Positions 24,112-64,000 of a DNA stretch of 64,000 nucleotides are shown here, piece by piece. Position numbers and translations under genes: made by a program. Numbering within the stretch: position 1 is the stretch's first letter; every line of letters begins with the position of its first letter. The notes beneath the pieces are model-generated. The model saw only the letters and a list, made by a program, of their open reading frames with translations, was not told where the DNA came from and did not search any database. Location: positions 1 through 64,000 of the IMG/VR virus record IMGVR_UViG_3300009185_000001. One strand, 5' to 3'. This DNA is from a virus (Duplodnaviria > Caudoviricetes).

Positions 24112-24383
24112 TTGTATTGTTCAAGACCTTTCTCCAAAAGATCTGAAATAACCTGATTAACCGAAATATCTTTATCACAAGATTCTTGAATAAGAAATTC
24201 TATTAGTTCTCTGTCAAGCTCAGATAAATTAATATCAACCGTAGAAAACTTTTCAAGTAAAATTCCTCCATCAGTTTCTTTAATAGAGAACTTATCTCCT
24301 TGTTTAATGTTAAGTTGAGCTAGTTCATCTTCTGTGAATTTAACGCAGACATCTCCTGTTGGTTCTATTGTTTTTTTGATCAT
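24108..24383 (-). CDS. AbrB/MazE-like DNA-binding protein
   Basis: GDVCVKF.ED.L.QL.IK.GD.F pattern. Confidence 0.5.
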   Translation of the reverse strand: MIKKTIEPTGDVCVKFTEDELAQLNIKQGDKFSIKETDGGILLEKFSTVDINLSELDRELIEFLIQESCDKDISVNQVISDLLEKGLEQYK

Positions 24384-29961: not shown

Positions 29962-30112
29962 TTTGTGTTTCCTGCATAGCCTTTTCCATATCACCATAGA
30001 TACTATTTGAGATATAATCTTCTCCTGCATCATATAAAGCATCTATTGCTTTTTTTAGGAGTTTTAATAATTCCAACTCTAATTTTGTTAGTTTTTTATT
30101 GTTAATTTTCAT
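29951..30112 (-). CDS. Small hypothetical protein (53 aa, not in the ORF track)
   Basis: MKINNKKL...ETQNEQ overlaps both YopX neighbours. Confidence 0.5.
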   Translation of the reverse strand: MKINNKKLTKLELELLKLLKKAIDALYDAGEDYISNSIYGDMEKAMQETQNEQ

Positions 30113-30542
30113 TGTTTAAAAGTTCTTTAGATTCGAAGATATTTCCAATTACTTCATAACTATAAGAAAGATATCGAAAATCATCCATATCATCATAACC
30201 TTTATAAGCAATTAGAAAAGCAGCCTTCATTTCCCACCAAACTACCTGTCCTATCTCTAACCCGCCATCAATTGTTTTATATTCTATTTTCCCATCCTTA
30301 ACATCAGGACGAGTAAAACTTCTTTGAACATTGACTATATCACCTTCATAGATTGGTTTTTTGTTCTTGTCGTAGAGTCCAGTAAATTGCTGAACAACAT
30401 ATTCATCACCACCAGAACCATTCTGAAAGTTTTGAAATTGTCCGTTCAAAGTAAGAACATAATGTCCCTGATATCCTTTGTCTGGATAGGTGAATTGTTT
30501 TGCTGGTTTATCCCAAGCTCGGAATTTAAGTTGTCTTTGCAT
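30102..30542 (-). CDS. YopX-family protein, copy 3
   Basis: LKFRAWD...QFTGLYDKN..PIYEGDIV...EVIGNI.E. Confidence 0.85.
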   Translation of the reverse strand: MQRQLKFRAWDKPAKQFTYPDKGYQGHYVLTLNGQFQNFQNGSGGDEYVVQQFTGLYDKNKKPIYEGDIVNVQRSFTRPDVKDGKIEYKTIDGGLEIGQVVWWEMKAAFLIAYKGYDDMDDFRYLSYSYEVIGNIFESKELLNNEN

Positions 30543-30798
30543 ATTTCTTTCTCTCCATTCTAACTTCTTTTCTCTTCATGTCAAGTTTTTTGATTTGTTC
30601 TTCAAGTTTCTTGTTTCTATGTTTTTCAAAACCAAAATCAAAATCCCCAAAAGGAGTTATCATTTTATAGAGTTTTGTAATTTCTCTATCTAACTTTTGT
30701 AATTTTTTAAAAATGGTCGAAAGTACACGACTCGAACGTGTGCCACTCGTACGTCTACGGCTGTTCTCTCCACCTAAACTAACTTTCGAAATTTTCAT
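30526..30798 (-). CDS. Hypothetical basic protein
   Basis: Overlapping early-array ORF. Confidence 0.5.
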   Translation of the reverse strand: MKISKVSLGGENSRRRTSGTRSSRVLSTIFKKLQKLDREITKLYKMITPFGDFDFGFEKHRNKKLEEQIKKLDMKRKEVRMERKKYAKTT

Positions 30799-30822
30799 AA
30801 ATTACTTTGTGAGTATACCCCC

Positions 30823-31065
30823 TTATTTTAGGTAGGCTAATTTAGCTATTGATTTTTCTTTTGTAGGTATCCAGCTATGATACAAAAGATCAGTACATTT
30901 TTTTATTTTATAGATCTTAATAACATTTTTAGAATGATATTTTATAACAAAATCTTTATCTTTTACTTTGAAGAAATATGGATCATCTGCCCAGTATACT
31001 TTCTTTAGTTTACCATTTTTACTAAAAATTCTCCAATATTTGTTAGCATTACAACAATCACACAT
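30823..31065 (-). CDS. Hypothetical protein
   Basis: Early-array ORF. Confidence 0.5.
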   Translation of the reverse strand: MCDCCNANKYWRIFSKNGKLKKVYWADDPYFFKVKDKDFVIKYHSKNVIKIYKIKKCTDLLYHSWIPTKEKSIAKLAYLK

Positions 31066-31105
31066 ATAAATTATCCTCCACTTTTTTAATTTCTGTTTTC
31101 ATAAA

Positions 31106-31312
31106 TTATTTTGGAATTTTCACTTCTCCTGTAAGAACATAACAATTGTGAACTTCTCTAGCAAATTCCATTTTGTTCATTTGATCGTGTAAAATATTAA
31201 TATAATCTTGTTTGTTATCTTCAAAAAGATTTGGATTGAATTTCATATCAGCAATCTTATCACTAAGCATTGCTCGAATCTTATCTATTTGTTTATCAAA
31301 ATGTGTTTTCAT
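31106..31312 (-). CDS. Hypothetical protein
   Basis: Early-array ORF; start moved to MKTHF. Confidence 0.5.
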   Translation of the reverse strand: MKTHFDKQIDKIRAMLSDKIADMKFNPNLFEDNKQDYINILHDQMNKMEFAREVHNCYVLTGEVKIPK

Positions 31313-31535
31313 GTTCTTTGTATATCGCATTGTGCAGAAAAGCAAAAGCATTTTCTGCTCTTTCTCCCCACTCATATTCTCTACCATTAGACCAATCCAA
31401 GCAATTCAAAATTGCCTCTCGATACATATCTCTTTCTTTTTTTATTTTGGAATAAATTTCAAGCCAATCAGCAGGTGATAATTCTTTACATTTAAAATTA
31501 GAATCACCAGTAGTATCACTCATAATATTTTTCAT
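31296..31535 (-). CDS. Hypothetical protein
   Basis: Overlapping early-array ORF. Confidence 0.55.
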   Translation of the reverse strand: MKNIMSDTTGDSNFKCKELSPADWLEIYSKIKKERDMYREAILNCLDWSNGREYEWGERAENAFAFLHNAIYKEHENTF

Positions 31536-31539
31536 AATG

Positions 31540-31761
31540 TTAATTTACTTTAATTTTTTGATAACCAATTTCTTCAATTACTTCACCATCTTTAAGCAAA
31601 CGGTGCTTATAGTTCTGATTATAATAACTTTTTAACATACTCCAAGCACCCTCTGCAAATGACTTTTGCATACAATCAAAAGGAAATAAAAGGGTCCATT
31701 TGTTTTGTTCGGGGTTATCAGGATATTCCCAAAGTCTTTCAATTTTATAGAGGCTTTTCAT
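31540..31761 (-). CDS. Hypothetical protein
   Basis: Early-array ORF. Confidence 0.55.
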   Translation of the reverse strand: MKSLYKIERLWEYPDNPEQNKWTLLFPFDCMQKSFAEGAWSMLKSYYNQNYKHRLLKDGEVIEEIGYQKIKVN

Positions 31762-32124
31762 TTAAAGTTTAAATTGTTTGTCGTTTCCAAAATGTATTGA
31801 ACAAAGCATATCTACGCAACCATGAATTTCTCTCATTAAATTGGGATGAGGATTGCTAAAAAAACTTTCTGGATAATCGGAACCAGTAGAAATAGAACGA
31901 ACTGGTTCTAAAGTTTCAGAGTCTTTTATTACAATCTCAACAAAGTATCTTTTGTCTTTCATTGAATTAGTGAATGTCTTAAGTTTATTAATTGTTTTTT
32001 CAATTGCTTCAAATTTCTCTTTATCATCTCTATAGCTATCTTGCTCCATTTCAAGCCAATATATATCTTTAGATGAAAGGTTTTTTTCTTTTGTCAATAC
32101 TTCGGTATCGTCTGGATCTCTCAT
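31762..32124 (-). CDS. Hypothetical protein
   Basis: Abutting early-array ORF. Confidence 0.55.
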   Translation of the reverse strand: MRDPDDTEVLTKEKNLSSKDIYWLEMEQDSYRDDKEKFEAIEKTINKLKTFTNSMKDKRYFVEIVIKDSETLEPVRSISTGSDYPESFFSNPHPNLMREIHGCVDMLCSIHFGNDKQFKL

Positions 32125-32266
32125 AATTTATTTTGCAAAAGAATTAACCATGGCATAAACGTAAAAACATGGCAAAAAGGTAAAAAGCTAATGAGCAAAC
32201 AAATGCAAACCAAATAAATGCTTTGCCAAATTTTTCAAATAATGGGTTCATGTAATCAATATAGAA

Positions 32267-32602
32267 TTATTCGTAGGACAAGTCAAGCCAATTTGTATCG
32301 TCTGGCATTATTTCTACATTTACTCCAGCTTCTTTGGATTTGTTGATAATGTCCTGCAAAACTCCGTGACCATAGATAGTAGCACCATAACGATTTTCAT
32401 TGCAAGAATAAACAGAACCAGAATAACCTTTAAACAGATAAAAATTTTCTTCTTTTGTAACTTTTGTAATACCGCTATTTAGTTTCCAAGAGTCTTCACT
32501 TAAATAACCTCCATACCAACAAGCAAATACTTTATAAGTCAAAGGAAATTTTTTTCCCTCAATCTTGACAACTAGCCATTTGTCCGGTGTGTATTGTTTC
32601 AT
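32267..32602 (-). CDS. Conserved phage hypothetical protein
   Basis: YTPD.W.VVKI...YKVF..W.GGY...DSWKLNSGI motif. Confidence 0.7.
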   Translation of the reverse strand: MKQYTPDKWLVVKIEGKKFPLTYKVFACWYGGYLSEDSWKLNSGITKVTKEENFYLFKGYSGSVYSCNENRYGATIYGHGVLQDIINKSKEAGVNVEIMPDDTNWLDLSYE

Positions 32603-32665
32603 AAATTACTATTTAAAATATTTTAAAGTATTTTTAATTTTTACTCTAAAAATACATTCATCTGA

Positions 32666-32673
32666 GATAAGTA
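32666..32673 (+). promoter_or_regulatory. Late promoter motif upstream of tnpB
   Basis: GATAAGTA 6 nt before the ATG at 32680. Confidence 0.5.
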
Positions 32674-32679
32674 TAATAA

Positions 32680-33942
32680 ATGATCGGGAAATGTCAAGAA
32701 CTAAAAGAGAACGAAATGCATAAAGCATTTAAGTTCCGTTTGCTTCCTACAAAGGAGCAAGAAGTTCTTTTAGCAAAGCACTTTGGATGTTCTAGATTCA
32801 TCTATAATCACTTTTTATCTGAAAAGCAAAAACATTATTTGGAAAACAAAACAACGTTGAATTTTAATCAATGTGCAGGAAATTTAGTAGCTAAGAAAAA
32901 AGAAGAAGGATATGAATGGTTAAAAGAAGTTAATTCGCAAGTTCTTATATCCACTCTAATGAATTTGGAAACAGCTTATGGCAATTTTTTTAAAAAGAAA
33001 TCTAAGTTCCCTCGTTTTAAATCAAAAAAGAATAAAAATTCGTTTCAGATCCCTCAACATATTTCTTTAAAAGAAGAAAATGTAGTTCAAATACCAAAGT
33101 TCAAAGAAGGATTAAAATTTGTTAAACATAGAGAACTAAAAGGAGAAATTAAATCAGCAACCATTTCCAAATTAACTACAGGAAAATACTACATTTCCTT
33201 CCTGTGCGTTGTGGAAAAGCCAATTAAACACAAGAAAACAGGAAAGAGCATTGGAATTGATTTGGGGTTGAAAGACTTCATTATTACTTCTGAAGAACAG
33301 AGATATTGTAATCCGAAGTTCACTAAGAAGTATGAAGCTAAGTTAGCTAAAAAGCAAAGAATTTTAAGTAGAAAAGAAAAAGGATCAAAAGGAAGAGACA
33401 AAGCTAGAATAGCTGTTGCAAAGGTACATGAGAAGATAACCAATTCTCGTAATGATATGCAACATAAAGTTTCTTCTAAGTTAGTAAAAGACTACGATCT
33501 AATTGCAATAGAAGACCTGAATGTTAAAGGAATGGTTAAAAACCATAAACTCGCTAAAGCAATATCAGATGTAGCTTGGTCAAGCTTTGTGACCAAATTA
33601 AAGTACAAAGCACAATGGAATGATAAAGAAGTGATCACTATAGATCGTTTTTATCCTTCCAGCAAAACATGTAGTTGCTGTGATCAGGTCAAAGAGAGTC
33701 TTTCATTGGATGAAAGAACTTGGACTTGTTCTAAATGCAATACAATACATGATAGAGATGTTAATGCTTCAAAGAATATTTTAAGAAGAGCATTAGCAAT
33801 TCAATCGGCAGGAACTGTCGATAACAGGAATGGAGCTAAGGTAAGACCAAAGGAGATCTCAAAGGTTTCTAGAGGCACTGGCGTTGAAGTTCTTAAAAAG
33901 AAGAATGGACGTAAGTACATTCTGAAGCCAGTAGGTCTTTAG
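32680..33942 (+). CDS. tnpB: IS200/IS605-family RNA-guided endonuclease TnpB
   Basis: HKAFKFRLLPT..Q HTH; RuvC GIDLG, IEDL, DRD.NA; CSCC/CSKC zinc finger. Confidence 0.95.
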   Translation: MIGKCQELKENEMHKAFKFRLLPTKEQEVLLAKHFGCSRFIYNHFLSEKQKHYLENKTTLNFNQCAGNLVAKKKEEGYEWLKEVNSQVLISTLMNLETAYGNFFKKKSKFPRFKSKKNKNSFQIPQHISLKEENVVQIPKFKEGLKFVKHRELKGEIKSATISKLTTGKYYISFLCVVEKPIKHKKTGKSIGIDLGLKDFIITSEEQRYCNPKFTKKYEAKLAKKQRILSRKEKGSKGRDKARIAVAKVHEKITNSRNDMQHKVSSKLVKDYDLIAIEDLNVKGMVKNHKLAKAISDVAWSSFVTKLKYKAQWNDKEVITIDRFYPSSKTCSCCDQVKESLSLDERTWTCSKCNTIHDRDVNASKNILRRALAIQSAGTVDNRNGAKVRPKEISKVSRGTGVEVLKKKNGRKYILKPVGL

Positions 33943-33958
33943 CCTACTGGCAGTTCAC
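33805..33958 (+). mobile_element. IS605-type right end / omega-RNA scaffold
   Basis: Hairpin CCAGTAGG(33928-35)/CCTACTGG(33943-50) ending GCAGTTCAC at 33958; overlaps the tnpB 3' end; 5' boundary approximate. Confidence 0.75.
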
Positions 33959-33973
33959 CTGGACAATACTCAC

Positions 33974-34297
33974 TCACGATTCAATAATAAATTCACCCTC
34001 TTTGCATTTATCTGGAGAAAGATATAAAGAAATTGTTTGTTCTTCATTAACCCATGTTCCAAAAAGAACTGGAAATTCTAAAGTATCTCCGTCATTCTTT
34101 TCGACTTTATATTTTGAAGACATTTGAATGTATTTGTAAATTTTTGGTCCACAATATAGAGTATTAAGATCTACACTGTACTTCCCATAAAAACTCTTTG
34201 TACTAGACAAAAATTCATCAATTTTTTTAATGATTTCGCTAGGAGTTAGTGTAGATATATTTTCTATTATATTTTCTAGTTCGTATGTTATTTTCAT
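33974..34297 (-). CDS. Hypothetical protein
   Basis: Early-array ORF. Confidence 0.55.
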   Translation of the reverse strand: MKITYELENIIENISTLTPSEIIKKIDEFLSSTKSFYGKYSVDLNTLYCGPKIYKYIQMSSKYKVEKNDGDTLEFPVLFGTWVNEEQTISLYLSPDKCKEGEFIIES

Positions 34298-34300
34298 AAA

Positions 34301-34501
34301 TTAAAAATGATCTGGAATGTTTCTAATAGCTTGATCAAGCTTCTTATACAGGTTTGGAATCTTTGTTTCGTTTTGTTTTTCTTCGGTATATAGTTTTCCT
34401 TCAAACCAAATCTTACCAGTAGAGTCTTTTATTTCAATTTTATGAAATATAGTTTCATTTTGAAACATTCTATAAATTTTTGTTGTTAATTCGTCGTTCA
34501 T
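34301..34501 (-). CDS. Hypothetical protein
   Basis: Early-array ORF. Confidence 0.5.
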   Translation of the reverse strand: MNDELTTKIYRMFQNETIFHKIEIKDSTGKIWFEGKLYTEEKQNETKIPNLYKKLDQAIRNIPDHF

Positions 34502-34734
34502 AAATCTTCAATAATATCAAACCAAGTTAGTTCTACTTCTTCGTTTGTTTCTTCTAGTATAACACCAGTTGAAGAAGAAGCAACACTAATTTTCTTTACT
34601 GTATAAACTTGTCCAGATACTAGCTTCTTTGCATTCTCAATTCTATTTGTGAACCAATGCATAGTGGATTCTCTAAACCTAATCTTGTCTCCAACTTTGG
34701 TGTTTTGGTATGTTGCGTATTTTCTAGGTATCAT
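34498..34734 (-). CDS. Hypothetical protein (SH3-like)
   Basis: KVGDKI.F...L..G.VYTV pattern. Confidence 0.55.
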   Translation of the reverse strand: MIPRKYATYQNTKVGDKIRFRESTMHWFTNRIENAKKLVSGQVYTVKKISVASSSTGVILEETNEEVELTWFDIIEDL

Positions 34735-35225
34735 TCTAATATATGTCCTCTAAATGTGTATCTCAGTTCAGGGTTATCTAGGCGATATGGAACAAAACTA
34801 GCACTGTCACATCCTTTAGTTTTAACAGAAACAATAATCATATACAATAGATATTTCTTGCATTTAAGATATTCTCTTAAATCCTGCATCGTCTTAAAAG
34901 TTTTATTTGATGCTGCTTCTACCTTAGTTTTATATTTAAAAATGGGTGCTGTAATATAACCCGAAGCATCTTTGATTGTCTCATAATCAAAGTTAAAATC
35001 GGAACATTCAGTCAACCATAAATCTGGTACTCTATCTGGATTAGGTCCAGATCCTTCCGTATTTTTACCAAGAATATCAATCTGTTTTATAGTTTCTAAC
35101 CATTCGATTGCATCCGTTATACAATTCAAATCGTTTTTATCAGCCTCGTCTTGAACTATATTAGATTTAATTTCATCTAGTTCTTTTGTTATTATGCTTG
35201 TTAATGTTTCTATTTCTGTATTCAT
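34731..35225 (-). CDS. Hypothetical protein
   Basis: Overlapping early-array ORF. Confidence 0.55.
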   Translation of the reverse strand: MNTEIETLTSIITKELDEIKSNIVQDEADKNDLNCITDAIEWLETIKQIDILGKNTEGSGPNPDRVPDLWLTECSDFNFDYETIKDASGYITAPIFKYKTKVEAASNKTFKTMQDLREYLKCKKYLLYMIIVSVKTKGCDSASFVPYRLDNPELRYTFRGHILE

Positions 35226-35506
35226 TTGTTTATTTCTTTTTTAAGTTGTGCTATCTCTTCTTTAAGTTTTTTATTCTCAAGAATAAGATCTGTAATGACA
35301 TCGTGTTGAGCTATAACAACAGGGTTTTTAGTATGTTTTTTAAAAGAACCTGACCTTACAAGTTTATCCAAAGTTTCTTCCGTATACTCACTAACCAAAT
35401 GTCCTTTGTCTTTAAACTTTTTCATCGCTGATAAATAGAATTTTTTGCTTTCTTCACTGTAAACAAAAAATTCCCCATCATGAATTCTTTCGTAAAATGT
35501 ATTCAT
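35222..35506 (-). CDS. Hypothetical protein
   Basis: Overlapping early-array ORF. Confidence 0.55.
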   Translation of the reverse strand: MNTFYERIHDGEFFVYSEESKKFYLSAMKKFKDKGHLVSEYTEETLDKLVRSGSFKKHTKNPVVIAQHDVITDLILENKKLKEEIAQLKKEINK

Positions 35507-35889
35507 AATAATTCTGGATGTTCAAACTTGTTCCCAATTACTTTTACTTTGCTTTTATAGATGGCATTAGAAAGATTATGTAACCACACATGAGCCAGTG
35601 TTCCTTCAACAGACACTGCTTTAACCGAAAGCAAATAAGCTGCATCTGCATAGGATACTACAGCGGTATATTTTTGAGAATCTTTGTTTGTCAAAGGTCT
35701 TTCATATTCTAAAATATCCCCTTCCCAAATTTCTTTATTATTGCAATCTTTCATTCCTGTGTATTGGGAAGGAACTAGAATACTCCATTCTCTCTCATCA
35801 AACAATTCATCAACAAGTCCATTGTATTTGTATTGTTGTACAAATGCTTTTCCCTGCGGACTCCAAAAACGAAATTTTATTGTTCTCAT
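35503..35889 (-). CDS. YopX-family protein, copy 4
   Basis: IKFRFW...QYTGMKD.N.KEIWEGDIL...KVIGN.FE.PELL; start moved to MRTIKF. Confidence 0.85.
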   Translation of the reverse strand: MRTIKFRFWSPQGKAFVQQYKYNGLVDELFDEREWSILVPSQYTGMKDCNNKEIWEGDILEYERPLTNKDSQKYTAVVSYADAAYLLSVKAVSVEGTLAHVWLHNLSNAIYKSKVKVIGNKFEHPELL

Positions 35890-36071
35890 CTTGCTTCTAC
35901 TATAACTCGGATTTGTTCTGGTGTCCAATTCTTTTCAATAGCTTCTTTAACAAGCTCTGCTCTCTTGTTTTTATCGTCTCTTTCTAATTTAGACATATAA
36001 CAAAGTGTAAGCAGAATACAACTAAACATAATAGCCATAAATACCAAAACAGGATCAATTTTTTCTTTCAT
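35886..36071 (-). CDS. Small membrane protein
   Basis: One TM; start moved to MKEKID. Confidence 0.5.
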   Translation of the reverse strand: MKEKIDPVLVFMAIMFSCILLTLCYMSKLERDDKNKRAELVKEAIEKNWTPEQIRVIVEAR

Positions 36072-36072
36072 A

Positions 36073-36351
36073 TTATTTTTTAATAAAATTTCTATAACTC
36101 TTTCCAAGAGTTTGTACATAATGAGCAAAGTCATCAATTTCTTGATCATCGTTGTCTACATTGTAAATGTAATCGAAAAGATATTCTTCTCCTTCTTGGG
36201 TTAATTTTAATCCTTTAGACAATTTTTGAAAATAATCTTCTTGAACGTCTTGGAGTTTATTGATGAAGGTTTTAACTTCATGGATTGCGTCTTCTGGATG
36301 TTTTTCTTCGGGTGTGTATGTTTTAAATGTATTATTTTCCATCGATATCAT
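36073..36351 (-). CDS. Hypothetical protein
   Basis: First gene behind the promoter at 36350-36379. Confidence 0.6.
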   Translation of the reverse strand: MISMENNTFKTYTPEEKHPEDAIHEVKTFINKLQDVQEDYFQKLSKGLKLTQEGEEYLFDYIYNVDNDDQEIDDFAHYVQTLGKSYRNFIKK

Positions 36352-36379
36352 TATAACAGTATATTGCCCATATTGTCAA
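36350..36379 (-). promoter_or_regulatory. Sigma70-type early promoter
   Basis: TTGACA-N18-TATAAT with a TG extended -10. Confidence 0.6.
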
Positions 36380-36419
36380 CACTAAAGTTAGAATAAAATA
36401 AAAAATTGCGATTGTCATA

Positions 36420-37091
36420 TTATTCGTGTTGTTTTAATTCTATTTTACCACTGTCATCAATCATAGCATAGGTAATCGGTAACTCACACTGAGAACCTAA
36501 ATTTACGCATTCTACTCCACCTACATAGTATTGTTTAGGAACGTGTGTATGACCAAAACAAACTGCATCATACTGGTTATTGTAGCAATACTGAGCAATA
36601 CGGACAGTTAAATCATGCGCTGCTCCGTGCCATGTTTTAATTTTAGTTTTAAGTTTTCTTGTCAGCTTTTGCTTCTTGTCTAGTTTTTGTAGAATATAAT
36701 ATATGCCAGACGCTAATTCTGTCAAAAACGGCTTTGTAGTAATAAAAAAATCAAACTTATCACCATGAGTAAAAAGTATTCTTTTATGGTTAATTGTTTG
36801 CGAATATTCATCTACAAATTCAAACCCAAGAAGAGCGGAAATTGTTTCTAGATCTTTATCATGATTTCCTTTAATAAAGATACATTTTTTATTTTTTGAT
36901 ATTTTTCTTAAAGTTGAAAGAATTTTCCATTGTTGTTTGCAAAGTCTGTGAATATTGTAACTATCCAGTAAGTCTCCACAAATTATTAAAGTATCATATT
37001 TTTCATTTTCTAGTAAATGTAAAGTCAAACTTGCTTGGCAAATTGGACTACCTAAATGTAAATCAGAAAGAGCTAAAATCATATTTTCCAA
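36420..37091 (-). CDS. LpxH-like (UDP-2,3-diacylglucosamine hydrolase family) metallophosphoesterase
   Basis: SDLHLG, GDLLD, GNHD, HGD.FD and GHTH motifs. Confidence 0.75.
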   Translation of the reverse strand: MENMILALSDLHLGSPICQASLTLHLLENEKYDTLIICGDLLDSYNIHRLCKQQWKILSTLRKISKNKKCIFIKGNHDKDLETISALLGFEFVDEYSQTINHKRILFTHGDKFDFFITTKPFLTELASGIYYILQKLDKKQKLTRKLKTKIKTWHGAAHDLTVRIAQYCYNNQYDAVCFGHTHVPKQYYVGGVECVNLGSQCELPITYAMIDDSGKIELKQHE

Positions 37092-38394: not shown

Positions 38395-39375
38395 ATGACC
38401 AAATTAAATAATACGGAACGCGAAGAGTTTATATGTCAAGCATACCTTAACAGGACGCACACTACAACACAGCTTCAACAAGAATTTAGAATATATCCAA
38501 ATGAAATATACAAAGTGTTAAAGAAAAACAATATAGAACTCAGAGGTGCAAATTTACCAAAAGAAAAAGCATTAAAAATTTGCGAAGAATACAAAAGCGG
38601 AAAAAGCTTCAAAAAAGTATGCAAAGATTTGAATGTAGCTGAATCTACAGTGATAAAAATTTTAAAAAAATATAAGGTAGAAACGAGAAAAGACGCAGGA
38701 CAATTTTCAAGAGTCTACAATTTAGACGAAACGATATTAAAAAATATAGATACCTTTGAAAAGGCTCAATTTTTAGGGTTGATATACTCGGATGGATCTT
38801 TATCTAAATACAATAAAAATATATCAATTAGGTTAAGAGAAGATGATAAAAACTACTTGGATGATTGGAGAATTAATTTTCTAAAATCTAATAAACCAAT
38901 GAATTATACATTCAAACCTATAACAATAAGCCCACTTAATAAAAAAGAATATAAAAATACTTATGGAGCATTCATTCTTGATATTTCATCTATAAACGTA
39001 TACAAAGATGCATTAAAATTGGGATTGTGTCCAAACAAAACTAAAGCAAACCTACCAATGCCAAACATTCCGGAAGAACTAAAAATAGCATTTATTTTAG
39101 GATTATTTGAAGGAGATGGAACTGTGGCGTATTGTTTAAGCAATAGAAGCCGATATTTTTCCATAGCTTGTCAAGAAAATATGGGATTAGATATCAAAAA
39201 ATACTTTGACTCTATTGGATTGTTTTCTTCTTTCTATAAAAGAAAATATATATGTACAGTATCAATCAAAAGAAAGGAAGATCTTAAAAAACTTTATAAT
39301 TTGCTCTATCAAGATACATCAATATACATGAAAAGAAAGAAGAAAAAATTTGAGGAAGCTTTAGATGCTTTTTAA
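38395..39375 (+). CDS. Free-standing double-motif LAGLIDADG homing endonuclease with N-terminal HTH-like repeats
   Basis: FLGLIYSDG and FILGLFEGDG; GATAAATA at 38382-38389. Confidence 0.85.
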   Translation: MTKLNNTEREEFICQAYLNRTHTTTQLQQEFRIYPNEIYKVLKKNNIELRGANLPKEKALKICEEYKSGKSFKKVCKDLNVAESTVIKILKKYKVETRKDAGQFSRVYNLDETILKNIDTFEKAQFLGLIYSDGSLSKYNKNISIRLREDDKNYLDDWRINFLKSNKPMNYTFKPITISPLNKKEYKNTYGAFILDISSINVYKDALKLGLCPNKTKANLPMPNIPEELKIAFILGLFEGDGTVAYCLSNRSRYFSIACQENMGLDIKKYFDSIGLFSSFYKRKYICTVSIKRKEDLKKLYNLLYQDTSIYMKRKKKKFEEALDAF

Positions 39376-63435: not shown

Positions 63436-64000
63436 ATGTCCGAAGAAAATAATAACATTTTAAATTTTAATGAAGCATTAAACCTATTAGACAATGCTTC
63501 TAAAGAATCGTTTTTAACCGAAGCCTATATTCCATCGTTAAAAAGAACCGTTAAAATAAAAGAAATTAATGCCAAACAACAGAAAACTATAATAGAATCT
63601 GCAATTGATTCTGCAATGGCCAAATCTACTTTTTCTAAGGTTTTTTATGATATTGTTTGTTCTAATTGCTTAGAAGAAAAGTCTGTAATAGAAACATTTA
63701 CTACAGTAGATAAGGCATCTATCGCATTTTCGATGCGATCACAAATTTCTGATAGTATTAAAGTAATTTTTCAAGAAGAACCTAAGATTGAAAACACTAT
63801 TATTTTAAATGATATTATTAGTAAATTTTTTAATTATACACATCCGAGTGAAAGTCTTATAAATTTTTCTAAAAATGGAGTTAATATAGATGTAAAAATT
63901 GATATTCCATTATTTTCTGAAGAAGCAAAGTTTGATAGTATTATCTACGGAAAAGAAAAGGTAGGAAATCAGGTAGAAGAAATTAAAAGCATTATTACAG
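63436..64000 (+). CDS. Second gp26-like baseplate hub subunit (runs off the window end)
   Basis: ATG at 63436; IPSL...VK.KE...KQQK.I, NC......T..DK..I...MR. Confidence 0.6.
   Translation, partial: MSEENNNILNFNEALNLLDNASKESFLTEAYIPSLKRTVKIKEINAKQQKTIIESAIDSAMAKSTFSKVFYDIVCSNCLEEKSVIETFTTVDKASIAFSMRSQISDSIKVIFQEEPKIENTIILNDIISKFFNYTHPSESLINFSKNGVNIDVKIDIPLFSEEAKFDSIIYGKEKVGNQVEEIKSIIT

Follow-up and report, generated by a model that had tools for sequence, protein, structure and literature searches.

The first 64 kb of a complete virus genome, IMG/VR record IMGVR_UViG_3300009185_000001 (202,880 bp, terminal repeats, 32% G+C), hold the only tnpB gene of that genome, and we think it probable, from comparison with related sequences, that the truncated element around this gene serves, without TnpA, as a late-expressed cassette for RNA-guided homing or competition within a clade of ~200-kb T4-like lake phages. 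The stretch from position 1 to position 64,000 is called the window, and coordinates refer to it unless the genome is named. Genes for a tail sheath, tail tube, baseplate hub, RNA ligase, and ribonucleotide reductase mark the virus as a T4-like myovirus. A megablast search of GenBank phages with window positions 31500-35500 gave no match, and the comparison was built on TnpB copies gathered from IMG/VR (10 close ones) and from metagenomes (28 loci), which have protein identities of 63-97%, with one distant copy at 39%. Individual relatives are cited by their L numbers.

TnpB matches the Pfam families HTH_OrfB_IS605, OrfB_IS605, and Cas12f1-like_TNB (E 3e-19 to 1.5e-28) and aligns with the structures of ISDra2 TnpB (8h1j and 8bf8; E 2e-74). 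The three RuvC residues that the initial annotation of this DNA had read as intact are all present, namely D194 (within GIDLG), E278 (AIEDL), and D360 (HDRD), and two CxxC pairs are found at 331-334 (CSCC) and 350-353 (CSKC). A nuclease-dead regulator of the TldR type was ruled out, as the triad is intact and not inactivated. The open reading frame (ORF) is full-length in 18/18 close copies checked; all three RuvC motifs were matched by pattern in 17 of these, the exception being the E motif of L121. The ratio of nonsynonymous to synonymous substitution (dN/dS), 0.07-0.18 for the window copy against 19 copies, shows that tnpB is under purifying selection. No partner transposase was found: the Y1 (HUH) domain of TnpA, PF01797, is missing from the complete genome and from five related phage records, with positive controls matched, so that the absence of tnpA noted in the initial annotation extends well beyond the window.

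The right end of the element was delineated by an alignment of 27 copies (10 from IMG/VR and 17 from metagenomes). All 27 keep the motif GGYAGTTCA(C/T) and diverge directly 3' of it, from which it follows that the guide starts as CTGGACAATACTCACT at 33959. A terminal hairpin with compensatory changes occupies 33928-33949, and GTTCAC at 33953-33958 closes the element; the earlier reading of an IS605-type hairpin ending at 33958, with the guide beginning at the next nucleotide, is therefore borne out by the 27-copy boundary. The last 220 nt of the same copies share a common fold of 57 pairs, of which 21 show compensatory changes, and 97.7% of the cells in the consensus fold are paired, compared with 24-43% in controls in which the partners were slid. 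This is strong evidence that an omega-RNA scaffold is maintained within the 3' end of the gene. Rfam matched no family between 32400 and 34200 at E up to 1, which rules out an IStron (a group I intron combined with tnpB) and means that the scaffold is not a curated family.

The left end tells a different story. In 19 independent insertions among the relatives, a canonical left end lies just 5' of the sequence matching window position 32615 and comprises, in order, a transposon-associated motif (TAM) of TTTAT, TTTAA, or TTTAC, a 7-nt stretch, an outer stem, and a GC-rich hairpin similar to that of the right end, a module of ~57 nt in all that is followed by AAAATATTTT. Homology between the window copy and these full-length copies begins at 32615, the module is gone, and no GC-rich hairpin occurs in 32603-32679. 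The initial annotation had also seen no hairpin here and had weighed the chance that a canonical left end would be found; one does exist, in the 19 relatives, but is deleted from the window copy, which is thus a truncated derivative of a tnpB-only member of the IS200/IS605 family. The module is missing as well in at least four other lineages (L090, L091, L093/L111, and L105), and L124 has lost the inner left hairpin alone. The family TAM, as read from the 19 full-length copies and four empty sites, is TTTAT/TTTAA/TTTAC; empty sites read TTTAT, TTTAA, or TTTGT up to the insertion point. TnpB itself, the right-end hairpin and boundary, and a TAM without target-site duplication place the element among the tnpB-only (IS1341-type) members of IS200/IS605, from which it departs in the left hairpin; without TnpA, it is not an autonomous member of that family.

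The insertion lies, as the initial annotation had it, antisense in an early-gene array. The small ORFs surrounding tnpB are all on the minus strand, and so are the sole sigma-70-like sites of at least 11/12 between 29.5 and 38.5 kb, which together identify the array as early-type. Compared with L002-L025, the array (30000-37000) is a mosaic in which small genes are shared in varying orders and combinations, and identity breaks sharply at gene boundaries. The insertion is not simply intergenic, however, but sits within a gene that has been patched. On its right, the element abuts a stub of the interrupted left gene, 19 nt that read GTG AGT GAG TAT TGT CCA G on the minus strand and show the element to have interrupted codon 7 directly after TTTGT (element strand); the guide consists of the first 16 nt of this stub. 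The stub is collinear with the uninterrupted junction of L085 and with the MSEYCP allele of L121. Empty-site alleles, which the initial annotation had proposed to seek in related phages as a means of defining the ends and the TAM, were found in these two and in others: in L085, the right gene ends in a stop codon that shares nucleotides with the beginning of the left gene, GTG AGT GAG TAT ATT CCA GAC AAA TGG, and the insertion point falls between CCATTTGT and CTGG in L085 and between CCATTTAT and CCGG in L121.

On the other side of the element, a patch and a joint occupy the place of the left-end hairpin module, and through them the left gene regains a start. The patch sequence is CCGGTGTGTATTGTTT. 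The 19-nt diverged repeat that the window thereby contains is a repair patch and no true target-site duplication. The left gene has homologues in 90 viral contigs, at 50-90% identity, and the patched N-terminal allele was found in the window and L011 only.

The interrupted gene also supplies the targets. In the uninterrupted left gene of L121, whose allele starts MSEYCP like the stub, TTTAT precedes a sequence that agrees with the window guide at 15/16; L047 offers CTTGT and 15/16, with the mismatch at position 11, and L003 (TTTAT) and L085 (TTTGT) offer 14/16, with mismatches at positions 6-7. The patch in the genome's own copy matches at 7/16. These are the element-free alleles that a homing element should have, as the initial annotation had foreseen. 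A second cassette gives a sharper case. The guide of L011, AGGTCAAAGGAAATTC, has 16/16 matches behind TTTAT in L004 and L015 and 15/16 matches in several other relatives, and L011's own gene copy at the guide target reads AGGTCAGTGGGAAATC, in which four codons, and with them 4/16 positions, are changed, three silently; such a pattern would be expected of escape from a working nuclease. The left gene of the window, at 32531-32551, has TTTAT followed directly by AAGTCAAAGGAAATTT, a 14/16 match to the L011 cassette guide with mismatches at positions 2 and 16.

Expression of the gene may follow the late programme of the phage. GATAAGTA lies at 32666-32673, 6 nt before the tnpB ATG as first reported, and belongs to a motif class, N[AG]TAA[AG]TA, with 201 occurrences in the genome. 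The class was observed 37 times at 3-13 nt before the ATG of ORFs of at least 60 amino acids (aa), against 2 expected (P ~3e-35), and the genes that carry it include those of the tail sheath and tail tube as well as a free-standing endonuclease gene at 38395-39375. Outside the window, the genome encodes a protein homologous to gp55, the late sigma factor of T4 (genome positions 106669-106902, minus strand; E 4e-10). We infer from the motif and this factor that tnpB is expressed late. The same type of motif stands at a like distance from the start codon in two element subfamilies, full-length copies included, and therefore belongs to the element family and is not a local acquisition; the motif behind the phage late promoter first proposed fits the class that precedes the tail genes, and it was inherited with the element and not gained here. 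Together, the exact right boundary in 27 copies, the covariation in 21/57 pairs, and the enrichment of the motif take element and motif beyond chance. Met13 (32716), suggested as the start of tnpB by distant TnpBs that align from residue 13-14, was rejected, and Met1 was kept because codons 1-12 vary synonymously among copies and the late-type motif stands 5-7 nt upstream in the two subfamilies.

Genome-wide, late-type motifs recur 3-13 nt before start codons (for example, at window 58698, 61119, 61723, and 38395), and most genes lack a Shine-Dalgarno sequence; motifs so near the start codons imply late mRNAs that are very short or leaderless. The gene at 38395-39375 (plus strand; PHROG 4645, E 2e-38, with a DNA-binding region) is antisense to its minus-strand neighbours and, having GATAAATA 5 nt before its ATG, is arranged just as tnpB is; it has the look of a homing endonuclease of the protein type.

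A sigma-70-like promoter pointing outward from the element, located inside the 5' end of tnpB and overlapping the late-type motif of the opposite strand, faces the patched left gene and may drive it. Four sites of at least 11/12, this one included, occur in 9 kb, compared with 0.8 in shuffles, in a scan that as a whole is not above shuffles (48 vs 43.5). In other copies, the promoter is only partly conserved (7-11/12).

Evidence for movement comes from a comparison with L011. The two share a 638-nt identical tract, 32574-33211, which spans codons 1-9 of the left gene, the joint, what remains of the left end, and the first 177 codons of tnpB, and is bounded by 19% divergence directly to the left and 7% further right. 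An identical tract between diverged flanks indicates that the patched left junction was recently exchanged between two diverged phages by homologous recombination inside the element and next to it. Related phage records carry 0, 1, or 2 copies of the cassette, and the flanks of element-bearing contigs match genes of this phage. Among 185,579 species genomes, the close relatives gave one hit, on a 13-kb contig of a metagenome-assembled genome (MAG), and the tnpB lineage looks phage-resident at this identity level; at <60% identity, tblastn matched 430 phage records.

Other cassettes vary the same theme. In L011 and L086, the cassette sits in the same left gene, of which 23 codons remain as a stub at its right end; in L093/L111, it lies in a different gene, with the stub beside the restored gene; and in L105, to judge from the flanks, it is probably in a third gene. 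In L090, a deletion has removed the left end together with the TAM and 25 nt, reaching as far as the start codon of the gene that follows. Full-length copies are mostly intergenic or in the last or first few codons of ORFs. This difference in placement between full-length and left-end-less copies fits selection for repair after a hit in the 5' end of a gene, in what is a small sample. Two derivations of the patched arrangement were considered. A cut-site mark left by end-joining in a cleaved recipient was rejected since the distance from TAM to joint varies (31 nt in the window, ~40 nt in L093, and ~78 nt in L011), and derivation of the window arrangement from that of L011 by deletion is unlikely, as the deletion would need to start exactly at the right-end boundary.

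The window also holds sites that bear on these other cassettes. At 24339-24359, TTTAA followed by CGCAGACATCTCCTGT is the empty site of the L093/L111 cassette and matches its guide at 15/16, making the window genome, on paper, a potential target. At 35527-35547, CTTGT followed by TCCCAATTACTTTTAC is the empty site of the L090/L006 cassette, with 14/16 to its guide; the TAM is CTTGT here, as opposed to TTTAT in five relatives, and this may be a resistant allele.

Lacking TnpA and its left-end hairpin, the window element can no longer transpose. In the mechanism that we propose, a gp55-type RNA polymerase would transcribe tnpB late in infection from GATAAGTA, and TnpB would make its omega-RNA from the 3' end of its own mRNA. 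The resulting complex would cut co-infecting relatives at TTTAT or TTTGT joined to an unbroken 5' end of the left gene, and T4-type recombination would then mend the break from the cassette-bearing genome, copying cassette and resistant patched gene together; alternatively, the cut genome may simply be lost. The genome's own left gene would escape cutting because the patch mismatches the guide, and expression of the patched gene may be sustained by the antisense promoter within the element's 5' end. The homing role put forward in the initial annotation has support in silico: empty sites exist, targets in relatives match the guide almost perfectly, the genome's own copy mismatches it, and a tract records recombination.

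Several observations weigh on the other side: (i) no 16/16 target of the window guide was found in an exact search of IMG/VR or in the relatives compared; the 15-nt guide gave 43 exact hits in IMG/VR, all unrelated chance matches, none with the left gene or with a TAM before them; (ii) the 15/16 target in L121 is mismatched at TAM-proximal position 2; (iii) both L085 and the window's own gene have TTTGT here as the TAM and not the family TTTAT/A/C; (iv) the late motif class was derived from the sequence of this genome and not from mapped transcription starts; and (v) the window and L011 have a common left junction and different right junctions, so that at least two events are required.

A wider proposal, to which we give a little less than even weight, is that the left-end-less cassettes have become an evolved class of RNA-guided, free-standing homing endonucleases, spread by phage recombination alone and each equipped with its own late promoter, a guide-resistant patch that rebuilds the interrupted gene, and an outward early-type promoter that serves this gene. 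The family would then have moved from transposon passenger to autonomous gene drive between viruses.

The likeliest of the alternatives, although we consider it improbable, is a stranded and decaying insertion sequence: a host TnpA placed the element in the left gene, the left end was lost in a gene-repairing rearrangement, and the copy is now inert, its decay not yet visible. The missing TnpA and left-end hairpin, the single copy in the genome, and the lack of a perfect target in the sample all agree with such a history, and left-end loss would be expected of plain decay too. A dying element is harder to reconcile with an intact ORF, intact catalytic residues, and the low dN/dS, and with full-length tnpB in at least four independent left-end-less copies (window/L011, L090, L093/L111, and L105). 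Compensatory changes maintain the omega-RNA stems, and the silent recoding of the L011 self-target implies a cutting activity to escape from.

Somewhat more doubtful is a domesticated weapon or regulator, in which TnpB would destroy competing phage, host, or other DNA without copying of the cassette or would serve another late function. The guide does match related phages and the motif is late-type, and cutting of relatives too diverged to recombine would amount to exclusion and not conversion, as PMC13565253 has it for protein homing endonucleases. Yet cassette DNA does move by recombination, as is shown by the identical tract shared with L011 and by two diverged phages that have the cassette in one and the same gene; neither a second guide nor a target matching the host was found, and the intact RuvC site speaks against a TldR-like repressor. 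Finally, continued mobilisation of the window copy in trans by a host TnpA, as a non-autonomous IS1341-type element, is very improbable: the 19 relatives with both hairpin ends beside a TTTAT/A/C TAM, mostly intergenic or at ORF ends, indicate that transposition seeded the family and that full-length copies may still move, but IS200/IS605 excision requires the left-end hairpin and the left cleavage site, both of which the window copy lacks, and the close lineage is nearly absent from the species genomes searched. The features of the locus are collected in Table 1.

Table 1. Features of the tnpB cassette and its insertion site in the window.
Feature	Position	Strand	Description
Left gene	32267-32602	-	111 aa, intact; no Pfam or PHROG match; codons 1-7 supplied by patch
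TAM-equivalent TTTGT	32579-32583	+	where the element originally inserted; codons 7-8 (Asp-Lys) in reverse complement
Patch and joint	32584-32614	-	19-nt patch ATG AAA CAA TAC ACA CCG G and 12-nt joint
Left-end remnant	32615-32679	+	65 nt, kept in 27 copies; holds GATAAGTA
Sigma-70-like promoter	32670-32697	-	outward, toward left gene; TTGACA, 16-nt spacer, TATACT; 11/12
tnpB	32680-33942	+	420 aa; RuvC triad and zinc finger
Omega-RNA scaffold	33750-33958	+	~210 nt, overlapping tnpB 3' end; consensus fold of 27 copies
Guide and gene stub	33959-33977	+	guide CTGGACAATACTCACT at 33959-33974; overlaps stop codon of right gene
Right gene	33974-34297	-	ORF, 107 aa; no known family

Elsewhere in the window, ARAGORN reports a tRNA-like gene with a four-base anticodon (gacg) at 30714-30788 on the minus strand; it overlaps an ORF and may be a false call.

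Cas12 descends from TnpB, whose natural role has been learned mostly from transposons of bacteria. The present locus offers a compact, testable case outside that setting, with a defined TAM and guide and with natural susceptible and resistant alleles a few bases apart, and its relatives cover every stage, from full transposon to truncated cassette to empty site. If the cassette is active, RNA-guided nucleases would serve abundant lake phages as gene drives and as weapons in their competition, and loss of the transposase would be an adaptation and not decay.

The nearest structural model is TnpB of ISDra2 (PDB 8h1j, 8bf8, 8exa; Karvelis 2021, PMC8612924), with which the phage protein shares its domain order, RuvC D-E-D residues, and zinc finger. 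In both systems, gene and scaffold overlap at the 3' end of the former, the guide RNA continues past the right end into a 16-nt flank, and the TAM is a T-rich 5-mer (TTTAT in the phage family, TTGAT in ISDra2). The phage element differs from ISDra2 in having no TnpA partner, a deleted left end, a location in a lytic-type phage genome, a late-type promoter motif, and a scaffold without an Rfam match.

Homing driven by TnpB has been described as restorative for transposons in bacteria (bioRxiv 10.1101/2023.03.14.532601) and as TnpA-independent spread among plasmid copies (PMC11870625), and the review PMC13565253 names the phage/plasmid case 'non-restorative homing'. In the literature that we found, phage-to-phage homing by TnpB figures as a theoretical case only. 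The cassette proposed here would follow the same logic, in which the guide is the flank, the element-free allele is cut, and recombination copies the element. It differs in that it is not excisable, the interrupted gene is rebuilt by a diverged, guide-immune patch, and the proposed arena is co-infecting phages.

The free-standing homing endonuclease genes of T4-type phages (SegF, SegB, Mob), known for intronless homing and localized marker exclusion, are alike in being extra nuclease genes whose presence varies among related phages, in their orientation opposite to their neighbours, and in the protection of their own allele by differences near the site. Co-conversion of flanks has its parallel in the identical tract, and a late-type motif in front of the gene in that of the endonuclease-like gene 38395-39375. 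The 15/16 matches beside a TAM in L121 and L047, set against a poorly matching patch at home, are consistent with free-standing homing, in which the gene-less allele is cut and the cutter's own allele is protected. Recognition, by contrast, is not by a GIY-YIG, HNH, or LAGLIDADG protein, as the nuclease is a RuvC-type TnpB that would find its site through a 16-nt RNA guide and a TAM.

IS1341-type tnpB-only elements, finally, are called 'transposase' in many phages, and with them the window element has in common a solo tnpB in a phage genome. Most of these elements are unstudied, whereas the clade described here is 64-97% identical internally, was found almost entirely on phage contigs of one T4-like group, and bears the late-type motif of that group. 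The cassette also helps account for the solo 'transposase' genes seen in hundreds of phage genomes.

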